From the sequence record OR670491: DNA of 64,000 nt. One strand, 5' to 3'. Shown here in pieces: positions 28,365 through 54,199 of this stretch; within the stretch, counting starts at the first letter, position 1, and each line of letters begins with the position of its first letter. Made by a program: the position numbers and the translations under genes. Below the pieces are notes generated by a model. It saw only the letters and a program-made list of their open reading frames with translations, ran no database searches and was not told the DNA's origin. The DNA is from Escherichia phage vB_EcoM_JNE01.

Positions 28365-29060
28365 ATGGTTGAACAATTTATGTTTGGTGGTTATGCAAAT
28401 GGTGAAGTACGTAACATTTCTATTCCTTATGTTGTAGAAAAAGTTAACGGTTCAGAACGCACATATGACTTGGCATCTCGTATGATGCAAGACCGTATCC
28501 TATTCTTGGATACCGATTTCAACGACCAGATGGCACACATTATCAAACAACAATTGGTATGGCTTGATTCACAAGGTGATTCTCCAATCACTATGTATAT
28601 CTCGTCCCCAGGCGGTTCAGTTCACGCTGGTTTGGGTATTGCTGATGTTGCAAAATCCTGTATCTCTCCAATTCGTACTGTTGTTATGGGTTATGCTGCT
28701 TCTATGGGTTGCTATACTCAATCAGTACTGGGTACTAAGGGTTATCGTCTAGGTGGTAAGCGTTCATTCTTCATGTGTCACCAAGTAAGTTCTGGTACAC
28801 AGGGTTTGATTACTGACCAGAAGATTTCTTTGAGGCATTCTGACTCTCTGAACACGCTTCTAACGAAAGAAATCGCTGAAGCAGTAGGTGTGTCTCATGA
28901 ACAACTTCTGAAAGACGCAGACCGTGATTTGTGGCTAAATGCAGAAGAAGCACTTGAGTACGGCGAACATGGTTTCATTGATGGTATCATCCTTGGGCCA
29001 CGTGATGAAGCTGGTAAGTACCTTGTTAAGCGTCGTGGCGGCGTGGAAGAGTGGGTGTAA
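28365..29060 (+). CDS. clpP: ATP-dependent Clp protease proteolytic subunit (ClpP-like)
   Basis: SPGGSV, catalytic-Ser motif GYAASMG, His motif MCHQVSSG, Asp region RDLWLNAEEALEYG. Confidence 0.8.
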   Translation: MVEQFMFGGYANGEVRNISIPYVVEKVNGSERTYDLASRMMQDRILFLDTDFNDQMAHIIKQQLVWLDSQGDSPITMYISSPGGSVHAGLGIADVAKSCISPIRTVVMGYAASMGCYTQSVLGTKGYRLGGKRSFFMCHQVSSGTQGLITDQKISLRHSDSLNTLLTKEIAEAVGVSHEQLLKDADRDLWLNAEEALEYGEHGFIDGIILGPRDEAGKYLVKRRGGVEEWV

Positions 29061-30530: not shown

Positions 30531-31055
30531 ATGAAATATACAGTACTGTCAGCACAAGACACAGAGATATGGCTTGGTAACGTATTAAAAACACTGATGG
30601 TTATAAAGAAGTTGATTTCATCTATCGGTGCTATTGAGACTAATCTCAAGCAAGATATCTTAAATGACTTCCACCGAAACGCGTACATGAAGTTCTACTC
30701 CAATATGTTCTATGGACTTTATGATTCTGATGATATCTGCATTTTTCCAAGTGGGAAAGCATGGTCATTAAACAGTGCATGTTTCAGTGATCTAAGGTAC
30801 AGTTTAACCCAAGAACAAGTGGATGCAAGAAAATACTTGGAACAAATCATGGATGATGGTACAATTACTTTCGTATCGGAAATCAGTCATTGCTGGAATG
30901 TCTATGCAGACAAACCATTCAATATTTCAGAAGAAGATATCATCAATTACACCCGCATCATGAGAATTCATGAATGTGTTAAAATGGCATTAAAAGATAT
31001 AGGACTATACGATGAAGCATGTAACTTGGATGAAGATAGCAGAAGTAGTAGCTGA
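30531..31055 (+). CDS. hypothetical protein (174 aa)
   Basis: ORF. Confidence 0.5.
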   Translation: MKYTVLSAQDTEIWLGNVLKTLMVIKKLISSIGAIETNLKQDILNDFHRNAYMKFYSNMFYGLYDSDDICIFPSGKAWSLNSACFSDLRYSLTQEQVDARKYLEQIMDDGTITFVSEISHCWNVYADKPFNISEEDIINYTRIMRIHECVKMALKDIGLYDEACNLDEDSRSSS

Positions 31056-32022: not shown

Positions 32023-32051
32023 TTGACTTATGGCAAATCTAGTGATACAAT
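32023..32051 (+). promoter_or_regulatory. sigma70-like promoter (TTGACT-17-TACAAT)
   Basis: Hexamers with 17-nt spacer; ~45 nt upstream of ATG 32093. Confidence 0.5.
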
Positions 32052-32092
32052 GCAAGAAACAACATAAAGAGGGCAAAAAAGTGTATCGATTC

Positions 32093-32692
32093 ATGAAGGA
32101 AGTGTTTCAAGCAGTTATCGTTATGATGCTTATCAATTTCCCATGCAGTGCAGGTGTGGAACGAACAAGTGTCATGCGATATTATGAGGAACCTAATGCT
32201 CTGGTGGTTATATCAGAGTTAACGGATGGTTCTGCTGACCGTATAATCAATTTTTACGATAAGACCCCATTCAAAACATTAATCATTACATCTCCAGGTG
32301 GGAGTGTAGATGCAGGTCTGAAATTGGGTTCTTTAGTGAAAGAAAATGGAATTCAAGTGATTGTTGTAAAGTACTGCAACTCTGCATGTTCCCTCGTGTA
32401 CTTCAGTTCACCGAAGGATAAGAGACTAATGGAAGATGATTCAGTACTTGGACTACATAACGTTTCAATTGAAAGCAAAGGGGGTGATGGTGATAACACT
32501 TATGTGACTATTCGACAGTTGAAGCAGTTCACAGAGGAATTGTCATCTAAAGTAGGTTTTATGTTTACGTTGTACGCCAGTAATGGTATTCCTACAAACG
32601 TACTAATGCGTATCGCAACTGCACGTGGTGATGATGTAATTGTTGTCACTAAAAAAGAATTAGAAGTTTGGGAAGCATCAATCCCTGACTGA
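32093..32692 (+). CDS. secreted ClpP/S49-like serine peptidase (putative)
   Basis: Signal-like N-terminus MKEVFQAVIVMMLINFPCSAG; TSPGGSV; CNSACS and GLHNVS motifs resembling ClpP Ser/His regions. Confidence 0.5.
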   Translation: MKEVFQAVIVMMLINFPCSAGVERTSVMRYYEEPNALVVISELTDGSADRIINFYDKTPFKTLIITSPGGSVDAGLKLGSLVKENGIQVIVVKYCNSACSLVYFSSPKDKRLMEDDSVLGLHNVSIESKGGDGDNTYVTIRQLKQFTEELSSKVGFMFTLYASNGIPTNVLMRIATARGDDVIVVTKKELEVWEASIPD

Positions 32693-32765: not shown

Positions 32766-33026
32766 ATGAGCACATTGCTTGATTGGATTTCAATCCTTTA
32801 TTATTCAATTTTAGTTTTATACAGTTTCACTATTCTACTTTCCGTTGGAATGTATAAAGAATTTCGTAATGGTTTTTTGAATGAAAAAACTAATAAGTTT
32901 GCTTCTAAATTCGAAGCAGTACTTTATTATTGTTTAGCTTCTGGATACATTACCTGTTTAGTACTAATGGGTATTCTTATGTATTTTATGGGAACCATTT
33001 TACAAGTTCTTCCATCTCTAAGTTAA
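32766..33026 (+). CDS. membrane protein (86 aa)
   Basis: Two to three hydrophobic segments. Confidence 0.5.
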   Translation: MSTLLDWISILYYSILVLYSFTILLSVGMYKEFRNGFLNEKTNKFASKFEAVLYYCLASGYITCLVLMGILMYFMGTILQVLPSLS

Positions 33027-33032
33027 GTGAAT

Positions 33033-33058
33033 AAAAAAGGGAGCATAAGCTCCCTTTT
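33033..33058. terminator. bidirectional terminator
   Basis: AAAAAA-GGGAGC-ATAA-GCTCCC-TTTT between convergent genes. Confidence 0.7.
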
Positions 33059-33063
33059 CTAAT

Positions 33064-33972
33064 TTAAGCTGCACTTACAACATAAGTACATTCAGCAGTA
33101 TGTGAACCATCAACTGTAGTTACGATAACACTAGCATTACCTTCACCAACTAATGTCACTAAACCTGCATTTGATACAGTAAGAACTTCATCGTTAGTAC
33201 TTGACCATACAACATCTTTGTTAGCTGCATTTACTGGGAGTACAGTTGCAATTAGTGTTTCGGTTCCACCAATTGGGCCATTACTTGATGTTTTACTTAA
33301 AGTAACACCAGTAACTGGGGTATTGACAACATATGCACAAGATGCTACTTTAGAACCATCAACTGTTGTTGCGTTGACTGTTGCTGAACCGTTACCAACT
33401 AGAGTTACTAATCCAGAATTAGACACGGTGAGTACTGCGTCATTAGTACTTGACCATACAACTGATTTATTTGTTGCATTTTCAGGTAATACAGTTGCAA
33501 CTAGTGTTTCAGAACCACCAATCTGACCATTACTAGAATTTTTATTCAATGAAATACTTTCGACTGGAACAACAACTGCGACATACTTAGTCGCGTACTT
33601 ACCAGTTTGTACTTCATTGCCATTAGTAAGAATTACTTTATGGGTGAAAAATTTATATGCAAAACCGAGTGCTTCCATAGTTGTTGCATCATAAACTTTA
33701 ACAGCGAATTCATCACGACCAAGTGCACTTGCAATTTCTTGGGCAGTGGCTGATAAATCAAGTAGGTTACGATTTTTATCTCGACCAACCATTGATACTC
33801 TTTGATAAACAGTAGTTGAATCACTATCAACTAAGTCAAACATGCGAGTACTACACTCGTTGATAATGTATAGTTCTTTATCAATTTCTTGAGCACTGTG
33901 ATCAGTTGCTGCAAAAACACAGATACCACCAACGTTGAATGGCAATTCACCAAATTTAGCTATAGGCTTCAT
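33064..33972 (-). CDS. Ig-like (Big_2 repeat) domain protein, Hoc/decoration- or tail-like
   Basis: Only reverse-strand gene; two ~85-aa repeats ...GGSETL.ATVLP.NA.NK.VVWSSTND.VLTVSN.GLVTLVG.G.A.V..TTVDGS...; AGGAG RBS. Confidence 0.6.
   Translation of the reverse strand: MKPIAKFGELPFNVGGICVFAATDHSAQEIDKELYIINECSTRMFDLVDSDSTTVYQRVSMVGRDKNRNLLDLSATAQEIASALGRDEFAVKVYDATTMEALGFAYKFFTHKVILTNGNEVQTGKYATKYVAVVVPVESISLNKNSSNGQIGGSETLVATVLPENATNKSVVWSSTNDAVLTVSNSGLVTLVGNGSATVNATTVDGSKVASCAYVVNTPVTGVTLSKTSSNGPIGGTETLIATVLPVNAANKDVVWSSTNDEVLTVSNAGLVTLVGEGNASVIVTTVDGSHTAECTYVVSAA
33100..33620 (-). repeat. tandem duplication (~255 bp period) encoding two Ig-like domains
   Basis: Repeated peptide blocks in both the - frame and the + shadow frame. 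Confidence 0.5.
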
Positions 33973-34003
33973 TTGCTTCTCCTATCAATAGAATTATTTT
34001 AAT

Positions 34004-34011
34004 TATTTATA
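34004..34011 (-). promoter_or_regulatory. T4-type late promoter motif TATAAATA (reverse strand)
   Basis: Exact TATAAATA ~32 nt upstream of the reverse-strand ATG at 33972. Confidence 0.5.
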
Positions 34012-34080: not shown

Positions 34081-34683
34081 ATGACTTGCATCATCGCTCA
34101 CGCAACACGTACTTCATCGTTTATTGCTGCTGACAAGTTAGGTAGCAATAACTTTACAAAAGCAATCCAATCTGAGCCAAAGATCTTTGAGAAAGAGTTC
34201 GATTCTCGTGTATTGGAAGAAGGGTTTATCCCAACAATTCACAAAGATACCATGACAATCGGATACACTACATCGTTCCGTATGGGACAGTTGTTGGAAC
34301 ATTGTCTTGTTCTACCAGAGAAGCAACCAACCCAATCGTTCAAGGAATATCTAGTACAATCAGTAGTTCCAGCTATCCGCACTTTATTCCGTGAAGAATG
34401 GGGTTCTCGTGCCGATAATCAAGATGTAGGTGGTGGTCAGTTCATCATCCTTCATAAGCACAAGATCTATGAAATTCATGAAGACTTCTGTGTACTTGAA
34501 CCAAAAAACAACATCAGTGCAGTTGGTAGTGGTGCATATCATGCAATTGCAGCAATGGCAGCTTATCTAACAGTTGAAACTGAAACTGAAGTTCCATTGG
34601 TTGACCGTATTGGTTCGATCTTTGATATCGTCAGCGATCATGTTGTTAGCGTGAGTTTTGAGCATGACATTCTAAAATACTAA
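34081..34683 (+). CDS. HslV/proteasome-beta-like Ntn hydrolase (putative)
   Basis: Thr at position 2 (MTCIIA...) and ...ISAVGSGAYHAIAAMAAYL resembling HslV GSGG.YA.AAA.AL region. Confidence 0.45.
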   Translation: MTCIIAHATRTSSFIAADKLGSNNFTKAIQSEPKIFEKEFDSRVLEEGFIPTIHKDTMTIGYTTSFRMGQLLEHCLVLPEKQPTQSFKEYLVQSVVPAIRTLFREEWGSRADNQDVGGGQFIILHKHKIYEIHEDFCVLEPKNNISAVGSGAYHAIAAMAAYLTVETETEVPLVDRIGSIFDIVSDHVVSVSFEHDILKY

Positions 34684-48082: not shown

Positions 48083-48156
48083 CGTTCAAAGGAACTGTAG
48101 GTACGCGAATATGTGCATAAATACATGAACAAATATCTATAATAAAAGGGATATAT

Positions 48157-50856
48157 ATGTCAAAGAAAATATATGGTGGCTTAGATGTCACACATAATGT
48201 TACAGTGAAAGGGAAACGTACTGTTCAAGGTATCAATGATCAAGTTTTTGATTCCAATGGTAACATGGAACTTGATACTTATACTAAAGAAGAAATTCTT
48301 GACGTAATTAGTATGATGCCTTTGTCACATTATGGTACACATAACTATCTACCTGCTGGTGTAAGTGGTGACTTCAACGGAGCATCAGAAAACACATCAC
48401 AGCGTAGAAACAAAATTCTATTAGAAGATGACGGAACATTAGTAATGTTGCGTGCTGGTACAAACGGTAGTGTGGAAGGTCTATTCTACTCTTACCTAGC
48501 GAACGCATTAACTATTGAAGATATGGGTCGTACCGTGAATACTGGTAAGCAGTATCAACCAGGGTTTTTGGGTTCCACAAAAGTTGCTTTCGGTTTATAT
48601 AACACTGATAGTAATATAATGATTGGTCAATATAAAGATACAACTAATAGCACTACTGGTTATTTTGTATCTATTACAAACAATACACTTGATGATACTC
48701 AGCACTCAGGATTTATCATTAATCAGTACACTGACCTTTCACCACAAGGTAACATTGAATATGCAATGATGGCAGAAGATGGTTCAATCTATGTGTTTAG
48801 TTTAGATGTTGCAGATAATAAAATGCACATGATTGTACAGCGTATTGTGTTTAATATTAGTGCTGGTACATACACTACATCACGTATATCTGGATGGACT
48901 ACAAAAACATTCTACAATACAACTATCAGTGCTAATACTAATATAGTATTAACCAACAGAACTTATTCAACTGATATTGTAGATAAACCATATGCTCTTG
49001 TACCAACTAACCTACGTGGTATTGGTATATACATGACTTCATATGATTTATATGTTGCACAACAGCCTGGTACTCAGAACTTCCGTTTCCGTTTAAATGG
49101 GGACTTATGGGCGACAATGGCAGACTATAATACACGTCCACAACATAGTTTTAGTTTCAATTTCAATATGAGTACTAAACAATGTACGTTAGATACTGGC
49201 AATGACATTGGTTCATTCCAAGCACCTATCGTTATTACAAATACTGGGACTCAATTAGTTGCTACTGGTAATGCTCTAAACAAAGATGATTTTTATAACC
49301 ACAGTGGTGCACGTAACATTTATAGTGGATATTACTATTCAGTAGAAGGTGTTGCTTTCTGTACAATATGTCCAAACCTAGCAGAACCATTACACATGGA
49401 AAAAGGTCATTACCCAGCACAATCTGTTTATAGCATGATAAATGTTAGAGCAGTGAGTTGTACAGATTTTCGTGATGGAAGAGTTGGTCCGACATTTGGT
49501 TCAGCAGTAGGGTCATATATCAACGGTGTTGAATTGTTACCTGATAACAGTACTAAACAGTTCTCTCGTGCTTCCGGTACAGGTTCTTACCAACCATCAT
49601 ATGCAGTGCATAAGAGTACTCCTAACTTTACGTTCAAATCACTTTCAATGGGGACTATTCAGGGTTATGAGCCAACAGCAGAACGTGCAAACGTAGCTGA
49701 TACGACCAACAACCGAGTATTCATTAGTTCAATTTCAGGAAGTACAGTTACAACTAATGGTGGTGTACTAATATGTGGTCAACGTTACTCACAGTCGTTA
49801 TCATATGATAAGTACATGAATGGTACTAACGTAATTAGTGTTACTCAATCAGTACTTGACAACTTCAGAACAGCAGAGTATGCTAAAGTTGCTAGTTCAT
49901 GGAACCTATCAAGTGCATCGGGTAAAGACATGTCGTTGTTTGTTCCACAGCAATCTGACATTCCAGCGTTTGTGTTTCTCAGTTCAGTGACGAACAATAA
50001 CCAGAACTATATTCGTGTTGCAGAAGTTAATGTTAATACAAGAGTAGGGAACATTACTAGTATTACATTTAAACGTTTAGTTTATGAAAACGTTCATGGT
50101 GATAACTTCGTTTCGAATACATCAGGTTCATTCTCTTCTTCATCTGTTGGTATGACAATTTATGATGGTGGTTCATTCTATTTCTTAGGTGGTTCTGATC
50201 CATTAACACATAATACTATCGGTAACACAAATACACATATGTTCCGTGCTTATGTTACTAAATCCACTGCAACTATTGATAGCTTCATTATTGCGGGTGG
50301 TCACGCCAGTTATGAACAAGGTGCTCAACCAGCAGCGTTGCCTGGATTGGGTTTTGGTATTTTTGCTGCAATTGACTATTCTAACAAAATGACATTCGTA
50401 CCTTTTGGAACAACTATTGCTGATTATAACGCATGGACACAGAAAGCGACTGCAATAAACTTAGTATCACAAGACGTTGCACAAGGTTTTATCGTGTACT
50501 TCACCGAAGAAACACCAGTAATACTATCAGGTAAATCATTTACTCTACCTATTTCGAATATTGATTTAACAACTGTAAAAGCTAATCCAGCCAATACGAC
50601 GTTTTATCTTTATATTAAAATGGAGCAAGGTAATGTTAAATACCACATAACTACTGAAGTTATTTCAGAAGCTGGTACTTCTGCATATAACGTATTTTGG
50701 ATTGGAACAATTAAAACTAACTCTCTTCAAATTGAAACAGTAAATGTTGAAAAACGTTCTCGTTTGGATATATTTGGTGCATCACTAGAAGCAGCAGGTT
50801 CTTCATTCCCAGTAAGTTATGGTTTACCATCACAAACAGGAACTATCAACTGGTAA
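48157..50856 (+). CDS. putative tail fibre/receptor-binding protein, paralog 1 (899 aa)
   Basis: Large Ser/Thr/Gly/Asn-rich protein; N- and C-terminal blocks shared with 50869 and 51473. Confidence 0.4.
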   Translation: MSKKIYGGLDVTHNVTVKGKRTVQGINDQVFDSNGNMELDTYTKEEILDVISMMPLSHYGTHNYLPAGVSGDFNGASENTSQRRNKILLEDDGTLVMLRAGTNGSVEGLFYSYLANALTIEDMGRTVNTGKQYQPGFLGSTKVAFGLYNTDSNIMIGQYKDTTNSTTGYFVSITNNTLDDTQHSGFIINQYTDLSPQGNIEYAMMAEDGSIYVFSLDVADNKMHMIVQRIVFNISAGTYTTSRISGWTTKTFYNTTISANTNIVLTNRTYSTDIVDKPYALVPTNLRGIGIYMTSYDLYVAQQPGTQNFRFRLNGDLWATMADYNTRPQHSFSFNFNMSTKQCTLDTGNDIGSFQAPIVITNTGTQLVATGNALNKDDFYNHSGARNIYSGYYYSVEGVAFCTICPNLAEPLHMEKGHYPAQSVYSMINVRAVSCTDFRDGRVGPTFGSAVGSYINGVELLPDNSTKQFSRASGTGSYQPSYAVHKSTPNFTFKSLSMGTIQGYEPTAERANVADTTNNRVFISSISGSTVTTNGGVLICGQRYSQSLSYDKYMNGTNVISVTQSVLDNFRTAEYAKVASSWNLSSASGKDMSLFVPQQSDIPAFVFLSSVTNNNQNYIRVAEVNVNTRVGNITSITFKRLVYENVHGDNFVSNTSGSFSSSSVGMTIYDGGSFYFLGGSDPLTHNTIGNTNTHMFRAYVTKSTATIDSFIIAGGHASYEQGAQPAALPGLGFGIFAAIDYSNKMTFVPFGTTIADYNAWTQKATAINLVSQDVAQGFIVYFTEETPVILSGKSFTLPISNIDLTTVKANPANTTFYLYIKMEQGNVKYHITTEVISEAGTSAYNVFWIGTIKTNSLQIETVNVEKRSRLDIFGASLEAAGSSFPVSYGLPSQTGTINW

Positions 50857-51472: not shown

Positions 51473-54199
51473 ATGTCATCACAAAGAATTATTGGTAACG
51501 CCAGTATATTAGGCAACTTGGCAATTGCTGGAAAAAATGCAATGCGTACTTTTAATGGAGTCTCACCAGACTCCAATACTGGTATTGTCGATTACCCAAT
51601 ATACAAACGTTCAGAAGTACAGAAAATTCTTGATATGATGCCTATTTCGCGTATAGGGGAGATGGACTATCTCCCTTTGAACGTAAATGGTTCATATGAA
51701 GGTGCAACTTCAAACTCAGCTACATATCGTATTCAGCCAACTATCATTGAAGATGATGGTACTGGTGTAGTAATACGTGCAGGCACAAACGGAAGTAAAA
51801 ATGGTTACTATTACTCGTTTATACGAGATTTAAGAAACATTACTTCTTTTACTCAGGATATGGTTATATCAACTACAACTGAATATAAACCATCTATTCT
51901 AAGTACTGGTGAAAATATTATTCGTTTCATCGGCACAAATGGTTATGAACTTTTAGTTTCATATACCTCCGGCTCTAATTATGTTTTCACATTAACAAAC
52001 GGTACATTCAACGAAGTATCACATATTCATGCTAAGTTAGCTGAATCAAGATTCGGTACTGACAAACCATTATATGCTCATGTGGTTGGTTCGAATATTT
52101 TTGTTTGGTGCAAAGACACCACGGTAGCAAACGGTGGATTAGCATATACATTGTATACAGTTTCCAGAAGTAATATAGTTGATGGTACTATGACTTCTTT
52201 TGCTAAAGTGACTGGTTTTTCTGGTCAAACAGTAAGGAATACAAACTATAGTGCATCAAATAATATTAGAGTTTTTGACCGTTACTGGTCTACAACTACT
52301 GGTACTGATTCACTATATGATATTGTTAGTCCAGTGAACAGTGTTGAATATATTGATTATAATGATTATAATATCCAAGCAAATGCCAGTACTGACAACT
52401 CTAAAATACGAGTTACTTTATACATAACTCCACGTTTCAAGACTCCATTAGCAATTTCAACTGTTCAGCCAACTGGTATTAGTTTTGTTTATAATATTAG
52501 TTCAAAGGTTATGACATTAGATGGGTCAGCAAGAGCACCAGCAACAGCAGCATACACTAATAATAATTTTGTTGTTACCAACCCATTCTCAATTTCAATG
52601 AGTAACTTTACTGGTTCAACTAATAGTTCATCTTCATTAGGTGACTGCGGTTCAATCTGTCAAACATCAGATGGTCTTGTTTTTACATCAAAATCAAGAT
52701 GGATATCAGATGAAACCTATGGTTTACAACTATATAAAGTACAAGGTACTCCATACGATAGTTGGGTCGCTAGTACTCGTAAGTCCAGTGATTTAACTAA
52801 CGTAAATGTTAAACCAACATATGGTTCTGCTGTAGGGGAAAACTTACTTGGTGTTAGATTTATTGATAAAAGAAAAGTACTTCTTGCATGTTCCAGTACT
52901 AGCGATGGTGTTACTTATGGCTATGACAGTACTGTATCCTCTGATATAGGAGACTCTCCAGTATACACATATAATAGTGTTGTAACTGGGTCTACAATTG
53001 AAGGTTTTGCTCCTGAAGCTGGACGTGAATATCATGGAAATAGTTATGATTATACCGCTATGGTTTCTTTGATTGCGGCTGATGGAACAGTAAAAACATA
53101 TGGTTCTTCATTTATAGAAGGAATAGCCAAAGATGCAAATGGATTATTAGATCCAGATACAATGACATTCTCAGGAAAATACACAATGAGTAATACTGCT
53201 TTGATGAATCTCAAACAATCGATCATTGATAGTGCAGATATTACTGGGACCAGTACTTCTAGGATTTGTTTTTATTATGTACCTGATAATACATTCTCAA
53301 GATCTATGGCAGTTGTTTGTACATACAATCCAACTAACAACCAAGGTTATGCTATTTTTGCAGAAGTAAATGCTGTTCTAAGTGGTTCAGAAATTACAAG
53401 TGCATCAGTATATACAACCAGATATGAAGTACTTGGTAGTATATCAGGAATCCAAAGTAATGCTCTAATGAAGCGTTGTACTGGATTAACAGTTGCAAAA
53501 TACTCTGGATTCAATTATCTTGGTATTGATACTATCCATCAGTTCACAGTTCCTGGTGATGTTAGTCAGAAAATGATGATAGCTAAAGTTAAAAATGGTG
53601 ATATCAGTACTAACCGTTATTTTACAACCTATCATGTTAGCAACGGTTCAGCTTTCCAGAGTGGTGCTATCCCTGGTGGTGGATTCGGTTATTATAACTT
53701 CAGTAATTCCGACTTACAGACAAAAGCAGTTCTTTCAGTATTCGGGACAACAGAAGCCCAGATGGATGGTTTGATTGCTGGTACTGGTGCAGTACTGAAC
53801 AATTATGTTGTAGTTTCTCAAGATGTAGCTGCTGGTTTCAACGTGTACTTCACCCGTGAAGTTCCGGTGTTCCTTGCTGGTATGTTCGACCGTCTGGTAG
53901 TTCAGACACTTGACCTAACAACCATCAAGAGTAATCCAGCTAACAGTACTTTCTACATTTACATAGAAATGAACCGAAGTACTGGTAAGGCTTCTTATGT
54001 TGTGAGTACTATACTCCTTGATGAAACGTTGACACGAGCCTTCATAGGAACTATAATTACTGGTGCTACTAACATATCATCAATTGAAACAGAAAAAGTG
54101 ACAAGGTTCTTGACCTATCGCCCAAGTACAACAAAACGTGGTTCTGCAATCCCGTCTAGTACTGGCGTACCGTCAGGCACTGGTACACGTTGGAAATAA
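51473..54199 (+). CDS. putative tail fibre/receptor-binding protein, paralog 2 (908 aa)
   Basis: Shared termini with 48157; divergent centre. Confidence 0.4.
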   Translation: MSSQRIIGNASILGNLAIAGKNAMRTFNGVSPDSNTGIVDYPIYKRSEVQKILDMMPISRIGEMDYLPLNVNGSYEGATSNSATYRIQPTIIEDDGTGVVIRAGTNGSKNGYYYSFIRDLRNITSFTQDMVISTTTEYKPSILSTGENIIRFIGTNGYELLVSYTSGSNYVFTLTNGTFNEVSHIHAKLAESRFGTDKPLYAHVVGSNIFVWCKDTTVANGGLAYTLYTVSRSNIVDGTMTSFAKVTGFSGQTVRNTNYSASNNIRVFDRYWSTTTGTDSLYDIVSPVNSVEYIDYNDYNIQANASTDNSKIRVTLYITPRFKTPLAISTVQPTGISFVYNISSKVMTLDGSARAPATAAYTNNNFVVTNPFSISMSNFTGSTNSSSSLGDCGSICQTSDGLVFTSKSRWISDETYGLQLYKVQGTPYDSWVASTRKSSDLTNVNVKPTYGSAVGENLLGVRFIDKRKVLLACSSTSDGVTYGYDSTVSSDIGDSPVYTYNSVVTGSTIEGFAPEAGREYHGNSYDYTAMVSLIAADGTVKTYGSSFIEGIAKDANGLLDPDTMTFSGKYTMSNTALMNLKQSIIDSADITGTSTSRICFYYVPDNTFSRSMAVVCTYNPTNNQGYAIFAEVNAVLSGSEITSASVYTTRYEVLGSISGIQSNALMKRCTGLTVAKYSGFNYLGIDTIHQFTVPGDVSQKMMIAKVKNGDISTNRYFTTYHVSNGSAFQSGAIPGGGFGYYNFSNSDLQTKAVLSVFGTTEAQMDGLIAGTGAVLNNYVVVSQDVAAGFNVYFTREVPVFLAGMFDRLVVQTLDLTTIKSNPANSTFYIYIEMNRSTGKASYVVSTILLDETLTRAFIGTIITGATNISSIETEKVTRFLTYRPSTTKRGSAIPSSTGVPSGTGTRWK

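Follow-up and report, generated by a model that had tools for sequence, protein, structure and literature searches.

We analysed 64,000 nucleotides of the genome of Escherichia phage vB_EcoM_JNE01 (sequence record OR670491), referred to throughout as the window. The gene under study lies on the minus strand and encodes a 302-amino-acid protein in which an N-terminal domain is followed by two immunoglobulin-like (Ig-like) domains of the Big_2 type. Its coding sequence runs from an ATG start codon to a TAA stop codon (33064-33066, included in the coordinates), and it lies between a transcription terminator and a late-promoter motif. The features of the locus are:

33064..33972, minus strand: coding sequence of the predicted virion-associated Ig-like protein, orthologue of Turkey5 XMR01705.1, CBB_112, GAP32_111, RaK2 ORF496 (also called gp496) and K64-1 gp635
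33568..33972, minus strand: N-terminal conserved domain (amino acids 1-135), beta-rich with one helix, the proposed virion-anchoring module
33316..33564, minus strand: Big_2 domain 1 (amino acids 137-219), delimited by Pfam, alignment and AlphaFold2
33067..33315, minus strand: Big_2 domain 2 (amino acids 220-302), delimited by alignment, a lineage-specific duplicate of domain 1
33979..33983, minus strand: Shine-Dalgarno sequence AGGAG, 6 nucleotides before the ATG, read from the sequence
34004..34011, minus strand: TATAAATA, T4-type late-promoter motif, 31 nucleotides upstream of the ATG
33033..33058, both strands: bidirectional intrinsic terminator A6-GGGAGC-ATAA-GCTCCC-T4, identified by folding, 5 nucleotides past the stop codon
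34021..34049, plus strand: sigma-70-like promoter TTGACA-17-TACAAT (11/12), predicted to drive the HslV-like gene at 34081

A lone antisense gene with its own terminator

The Ig gene is the sole credible minus-strand gene in the window. All remaining minus-strand open reading frames (ORFs) of at least 90 amino acids overlap plus-strand ORFs, and a PHROG search with seven other minus-strand ORFs returned no match. Turkey5 (PQ471516.1, 351 kb), a RaK2-like jumbo phage, is 96-99% identical to the window, with 98.6% identity over a 3-kb query around the gene and about 96% over 13 kb. In its first 140 kb the only minus-strand coding sequence is that of the orthologue, XMR01705.1, which is labelled 'hypothetical protein'; our literature search found no paper on Turkey5. 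The initial annotation had singled out the gene as the only convincing one on the reverse strand, which is confirmed. The G+C content of the gene (0.36-0.38) is the same as that of its flanks. GC skew alone flips, as expected because the gene is inverted.

The hairpin at 33033-33058 folds with a free energy of -19.3 kcal/mol on the strand of the gene and -15.8 kcal/mol on the plus strand (z-scores of -5.2 and -4.7), and none of 200 shuffled sequences was equally stable. A consensus terminator scanner missed this hairpin, apparently because the A and T runs can extend the stem; folding then confirmed it. Its stability on both strands agrees with the earlier description of a bidirectional terminator, and it plausibly ends both the Ig gene and the convergent plus-strand ORF 32766..33026. 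On the other side of the gene the intergenic region is 108 nucleotides long, and the sigma-70-like promoter is arranged back-to-back with the late motif, 10 nucleotides beyond it.

Domain organisation of the protein

Pfam Big_2 (PF02368) matched the protein in two stretches, including amino acids 136-212, with a score of 96.5 bits (E 8.8e-28) against a gathering score of 22.8 bits. In the AlphaFold2 model both Big_2 units are beta-sandwiches with a predicted local distance difference test score (pLDDT) above 90, so that the two tandem Ig-like repeats reported initially are real. The full protein was modelled with a pLDDT of 89, and amino acids 1-135 with a pLDDT of 84.5 and a predicted template modelling score of 0.80. 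Among PHROG families the whole protein matched phrog_215, 'structural protein with Ig domain' (E 1e-50), and the first ~135 residues matched phrog_33171 (E 4e-18) and phrog_10468 (E 5e-14), both 'virion structural protein'. Pfam has no family for the N-terminal domain, a phmmer search with it against PDB sequences gave only a spurious match to a designed repeat protein, and no structural relative of it has been solved. A Foldseek search of the PDB with the full model returned generic tandem-Ig proteins only (LigA, S-layer proteins and N4 gp17), which are uninformative as to location.

An alignment of homologues contained 26 invariant columns, 19 of which fall within the N-terminal domain. Across 31 homologues the first ~17 residues (MKPIAKFGELPFNVGGI) hardly vary, and the model shows them as poorly ordered, with low confidence; such a stretch would suit a flexible binding arm. 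The N-terminal domain is 100% identical to that of Turkey5, with one synonymous change in 405 nucleotides, in a region that is about 96% identical. Read by eye, the N-terminus MKPIAKFGELPF (MKPIAKFGELPFNVGG...) contains no hydrophobic stretch resembling a signal peptide.

Direct alignment of the two Big_2 units, each of 83 amino acids, gave 69% amino acid and 70% nucleotide identity, with 51% identity at third codon positions. This 69% is the highest identity between units of one protein among 19 two-domain homologues (range 0.37 to 0.61). The nearest relative of unit 2 is unit 1 of the same protein; the next nearest are the first units of other orthologues (at most 54% identity), not their second units. 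Because unit 2 is closest to its own unit 1, the second Big_2 domain must have originated in this lineage, through duplication or gene conversion, and the internal tandem duplication (residues 137-219 and 220-302) noted in the initial annotation is confirmed. Tandem Repeats Finder detected no repeat in the gene at the DNA level because the two copies are too diverged.

Of the 29 nucleotide differences between the gene and that of Turkey5, 24 fall within nucleotides 708-818 of the coding sequence, in unit 2. They form a patch of 110 nucleotides at about 33155-33265 of the window, with a local divergence of about 22%. Across all of unit 2, the codons that differ comprise 13 synonymous and eight non-synonymous ones. 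Judged from this pattern, the patch looks like an imported recombination tract rather than the result of point-wise positive selection.

A T4-type late-promoter motif

The late-promoter motif that was initially reported on the gene's own strand is present, as the only copy of TATAAATA on either strand of the window, where 8.4 ± 3.1 copies were expected (about eight-fold depletion). The shorter ATAAATA is present five times on both strands against 30 ± 5 expected (about six-fold depletion). A single TATAAATA is unsurprising by count; the signal lies in the depletion elsewhere together with the position of the copy before the gene. The depletion of both motifs would fit selection acting against stray late promoters. 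Of the remaining four ATAAATA copies, three are upstream of plus-strand starts, two of them close:

48117-48123, plus strand: ATAAATA, 33 nucleotides before the 899-amino-acid ORF 48157..50856
57941-57947, plus strand: ATAAATA, 54 nucleotides before 58002..58613

The ORF 48157..50856 belongs to phrog_3573, of unknown function, and has a paralogue at 51473..54199. The ORF 58002..58613 matches tail fibre PHROG 32568, and the adjoining 58615..61410 matches the tail protein family phrog_2871.

Under an order-3 Markov model about 36 copies of TATAAATA would be expected in Turkey5 (350 kb), which contains 13. Nine of the 13 are located 17-56 nucleotides upstream of a start codon on the same strand, and the starts so marked include those of the major capsid protein XMR01834.1 (201660), the gene preceding it (200453) and two baseplate operons (181364 and 187273). 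Turkey5 also encodes a late sigma factor, XMR01819.1, with PHROG matches to phrog_12791, 'sigma factor for late transcription' (E 1e-150), as well as to phrog_234, a family of gp55 type (E 1e-16). Its gene, whose position corresponds to a site outside the window, adjoins gp46/gp47-like nuclease genes in Turkey5, an arrangement that we take to be T4-like. At about 187.3 kb in Turkey5 (L010 37273-37400), a baseplate-operon TATAAATA is found in the divergent intergenic region beside the late sigma factor gene.

A TAAATA core was found about 40 nucleotides upstream of the gene in five of the six orthologues examined, including:

CBB and GAP32: GATAAATA, at -43
Munch: GGTAAATA, at about -40
Hallingskeid: AGTAAATA, at about -40

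In CBB, Porf_112 (ATAAATATTAATAT) is among 35 predicted late promoters, whose likeness to the T4 late promoter was noted by the authors (PMC5259590). This predicted promoter is assigned to CBB_112 (PMC5259590, Suppl. Table S7) and matches the motif found here, and CBB_244 is gp55-like (PMC5259590). The gene in the window has a TATAAATA -10 element at a suitable distance from its start, as expected of a T4-type late gene, for which no -35 element is required, and the Turkey5 genome supplies the gp55-type late sigma factor. Taken together, the motif, its distribution and the sigma factor strongly suggest that the Ig gene is expressed late.

A conserved antisense slot in RaK2-like phages

The 302-amino-acid protein has 681 database homologues. 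A tblastn search with amino acids 1-129 retrieved 59 records, all from RaK2-like jumbo phages 310-384 kb in size, with CBB, GAP32, BF, Munch and 121Q among them, and Foldseek matches in BFVD had template modelling scores of 0.62-0.85. The protein shares the homologous N-terminal domain of ~130 amino acids that defines an orthogroup of RaK2-like Ig-domain virion proteins (CBB_112, GAP32_111, RaK2 gp496, K64-1 gp635 and Munch_133; PHROGs 215 and 33171), with 31-59% identity in this domain. Members resemble the protein described here in having C-terminal Big_2 domains, a similar slot, antisense orientation and, in most of those examined, TAAATA about 40 nucleotides upstream. They differ in the number of Big_2 units: two here, none in 121Q, one each in CBB, Munch and K64-1, and two, three or four in others. 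The motif here is moreover the full T4 consensus TATAAATA, and the gene lies between ClpP-like and HslV-like genes, not directly after the dCMP deaminase block.

The orthologue stands alone on the opposite strand, in a similar slot, in CBB, Munch, Hallingskeid, GAP32, K64-1 and 121Q, and all six neighbourhoods contain a dCMP deaminase gene plus protease or NAD-metabolism genes. Slot and orientation are thus common to the Mimasvirus, Alcyoneusvirus, Asteriusvirus, Munch-like and Hallingskeid lineages. Because they are conserved across genera, and because the G+C content is like that of the flanks, the antisense arrangement is judged to be old and fixed. The gene had initially been described as a module dropped into its present position, and a recent insertion of that kind does not fit these data.

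Two relatives carry the N-terminal domain in a different setting. In 121Q (Asteriusvirus), gp471 (L015 2501-2878) is antisense in the same slot, is annotated as a virion structural protein, and consists of the N-terminal domain alone in 125 amino acids, with no Big_2 unit; gp472, a tiny annotated ORF just upstream, overlaps its start. Turkey5 has a paralogue, XMR01990.1, of 385 amino acids (297915-299072, L012 47915-49072, minus strand; corresponding to a region outside the window), which belongs to phrog_10468, 'virion structural protein', and shares the N-terminal domain at 27% identity (E 3e-10). The C-terminus of XMR01990.1 is different from that of the Ig protein and has no Pfam match. 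This paralogue likewise stands alone in antisense orientation, with GAATAAATA (containing ATAAATA) about 43 nucleotides upstream and a hairpin terminator downstream. The conserved N-terminal core, the 121Q domain standing alone, the range of zero to four Big_2 units and the Turkey5 paralogue argue that the N-terminal domain docks on the particle and that the C-terminal domains are exchangeable display modules.

Virion association of orthologues

Orthologues of the protein have been detected in virions. CBB_112 was identified in CBB particles by mass spectrometry with four unique peptides and 24.3% coverage (PMC5259590), and Table 4 and Suppl. 5 of PMC5259590 record CBB_112, the GAP32 Ig-domain protein and RaK2 ORF496 as all detected by mass spectrometry of virions. 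Lack of late transcription and absence from virions had been named initially as the outcomes that would speak against a late surface protein; for the orthologues, virion mass spectrometry and the predicted late promoter of CBB_112 point the other way. The designation 'late virion Ig-like protein' is thus well supported by orthology.

Several database records point to other functions. Those of Munch and SE_PL carry the label 'invasin/intimin-like', and a gene with its own promoter and terminator that is inverted relative to its neighbours could also encode an adhesin that is secreted or displayed on the host surface, or be a moron of recent acquisition with no connection to the virion. We regard this as very improbable, given the detection of orthologues in virions, the slot and orientation conserved across genera with G+C like that of the flanks, and an N-terminus without a signal-peptide-like stretch. 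The Pfam Invasin_D4 match reached 18.1 bits, where the cut-off is 27, and the search gave no further domain of invasin or intimin type, so that the label reflects the Ig fold only.

The records of CBB, K64-1, GAP32 (RefSeq) and XbC2 carry the label 'major tail protein', and the CBB supplement lists an HHpred match to lambda gpV. This match covers only the Ig-like domain of lambda gpV and arises from Big_2. A lambda gpV-type major tail (tube) protein is scarcely credible here: the N-terminal domain lacks a tube fold, the 121Q version of the protein is just 125 amino acids long, and in Turkey5 the sheath gene and three genes annotated as tube are located elsewhere, at 123-129 kb. We consider the tail-tube assignment effectively refuted.

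A proposed late-gene cassette for virion display

We consider it likely that the locus forms a self-contained cassette for a late gene in a RaK2-like jumbo myovirus, encoding an anchor with an Ig display on the virion. Late in infection, host RNA polymerase carrying the phage gp55-type late sigma factor would initiate at TATAAATA. Transcription would proceed antisense to the surrounding early and metabolic genes and end at the hairpin that serves both strands. The product, with no evident N-terminal signal peptide in its sequence, would be built into the virion, where the ~135-amino-acid N-terminal domain with its invariant flexible arm would dock it on the particle. The two C-terminal Big_2 domains would project into the solvent as a weak adhesion or display module, probably directed at glycans.

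A number of points weigh against this proposal or limit it. In T4, late transcription is coupled to replication and requires gp33 and gp45. The authors of the CBB study found no homologue of gp33 or gp45 (PMC5259590), and the mechanism of activation may therefore differ from that of T4, although Turkey5 carries an annotated sliding clamp. Upstream of the K64-1 gene, TAAATA is absent at about -40; the nearest ATAAAT is at about -45 and a GTAAATA is at about -88. Late timing is predicted from the logic of the motif, and a literature search found no RNA-seq study of any phage carrying the gene. Two structural observations concern the particle: the empty-capsid map of the Klebsiella jumbo phage phiKp24 was explained by the major capsid protein alone, with no decoration protein required (PMC9700779), and long fibres surround the capsid and sheath of 121Q (PMC5646251), with ~119-nm 'hairs', whose gene origin is unknown, on CBB tails (PMC5259590).

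These last observations bear on where the protein is attached. A position on the tail, neck or sheath, or at the base of the hair or whisker fibres of CBB and 121Q, would leave the logic of expression unchanged, and the fibres keep a tail location equally open; many PHROG matches of the Ig part also fall in tail categories. We nevertheless think such a position rather unlikely. The tail PHROG matches derive from the Big_2 domains only, and the N-terminal families are filed by PHROGs under 'head and packaging', which is annotation only. A protein of 22-33 kDa cannot by itself build 119-nm hairs. No hairs were reported for GAP32, yet the orthologue is present in its virion, and by the reasoning of the CBB authors hair genes should be absent from GAP32.

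In the 121Q capsid (T=28) every hexon carries a decoration density at its centre (PMC5646251), and the N-terminal domain could be this density. For phiKp24, compared here regardless of the presence of an orthologue, an Ig protein that is flexible or present in sub-stoichiometric amounts could have been lost or could have disappeared on averaging. We slightly favour the capsid hexamer centre over the tail or neck as the attachment site. A paper on neck decoration in phage 812 was considered as a comparison and set aside, the proteins being unrelated.

A broader proposal can be put forward tentatively, as a possibility that we hold with less than even confidence. The N-terminal domain would be a virion-docking module specific to RaK2-like (perhaps also Atu_ph07-like) jumbo phages, used by at least two paralogous antisense late cassettes with interchangeable displays, which may be either Ig arrays of zero to four units or a non-Ig domain of ~250 amino acids. 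If this were so, the Ig copy number and the distal mosaic patch would reflect ongoing adaptation of surface adhesion.

Neighbouring genes

The surroundings of the Ig gene comprise metabolic and early-type genes, encoding dCMP deaminase, ClpP-like, HslV-like, Sir2 and NUDIX proteins. The initial annotation had assigned the locus to an early region. This fits the immediate neighbours. It does not extend to the tail-fibre and tail genes at 58002-61410 or to the 899-amino-acid gene at 48157 with its upstream ATAAATA, and the window contains other late or virion genes besides the Ig gene.

Three protease-like genes, two ClpP-like and one HslV-like, lie near the Ig gene on the plus strand (28365..29060, 32030..32692 and 34081..34683), and the same cluster contains Sir2-like, NUDIX and PhoH genes. 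The ClpP-like protein CBB_104 was detected in CBB virions by a single peptide. A further virion-annotated gene within the metabolic block would be the plus-strand ORF 30531..31055, which corresponds to 121Q gp468, overlaps the dCMP deaminase gene at its start and has a match to phrog_19307, 'virion structural protein' (E 5e-41). In Turkey5, a region at 330-346 kb (L013 30035-45731), corresponding to sequence outside the window, contains 14 consecutive minus-strand genes, mostly annotated as RCC1, HERC1 or Kelch-like beta-propellers, which are possibly diversified host-recognition proteins.

Implications

The family was already known from virion mass spectrometry and is otherwise uncharacterised, and the gene described here is an additional member. 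None of our findings overturns current understanding. Their value for annotation is that relatives have been mislabelled 'major tail protein', 'major capsid protein' or 'invasin/intimin-like'; we suggest the name 'late, virion-associated Ig-like surface protein'. If the proposed cassette is correct, it would be a natural, compact anchor-plus-display scaffold on a very large capsid that tolerates zero to four Ig units, and uses in phage display and engineering may become possible once the binding site has been mapped. The depletion of (T)ATAAATA outside promoter positions should also offer a simple way of mapping late transcription units in this poorly studied group of phages.

Comparison with known systems

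The initial annotation compared the protein with Hoc, as a Hoc-like capsid decoration. T4 Hoc has N-terminal Ig-like domains together with a C-terminal capsid-binding region, binds at the hexamer centre and has no effect on capsid stability (PMC5292684). The likeness lies in tandem Ig-like domains that would be surface-exposed on a myovirus particle. The order is reversed here, as in T5 pb10, with the non-Ig part at amino acids 1-135 and Big_2 at 137-302. The Ig domains are also of the Big_2 type, and the top 50 Foldseek matches in the PDB included no Hoc chain, so that the protein does not belong to the Hoc family. The comparison holds as an analogy only, and a capsid location is not established.

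A second group with Big_2 arrays is found in Herelleviridae, as 'structural protein with Ig domain' or 'virion protein 4'. In Enterococcus phage EfV12-phi1 gp116 the Big_2 array is 39% identical, and the gene is likewise outside the structural module, beside SSB, UvsX, sigma factor and holin genes. It differs in that its N-terminus of ~128 amino acids is non-homologous and that the gene and its neighbours share one strand. An apparent homology to Herelleviridae proteins over amino acids 42-302 was rejected as an over-extended Big_2 alignment, with no homology at the N-terminus.

In gene placement, an apparent late virion-surface gene among early genes recalls T4 soc, which, going by the title of a 1984 paper by Macdonald et al., is reportedly a late gene mapping in an early region. 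Soc itself is a small cement protein that bridges trimers, and is unrelated to the Ig protein.

T5 pb10 has an N-terminal anchor that is more conserved than its mobile, solvent-exposed C-terminal Ig-like domain (PMC5292684). In the protein described here, too, conservation is higher in the N-terminal domain than in the Ig part. Its anchor is alpha-helical, whereas the anchor here is beta-rich, so that the protein does not belong to the pb10 family; binding at the hexamer centre has moreover been demonstrated for pb10. With a conserved N-terminal anchor followed by C-terminal Ig domains, pb10 nevertheless appears to be the closest known system in both function and architecture.

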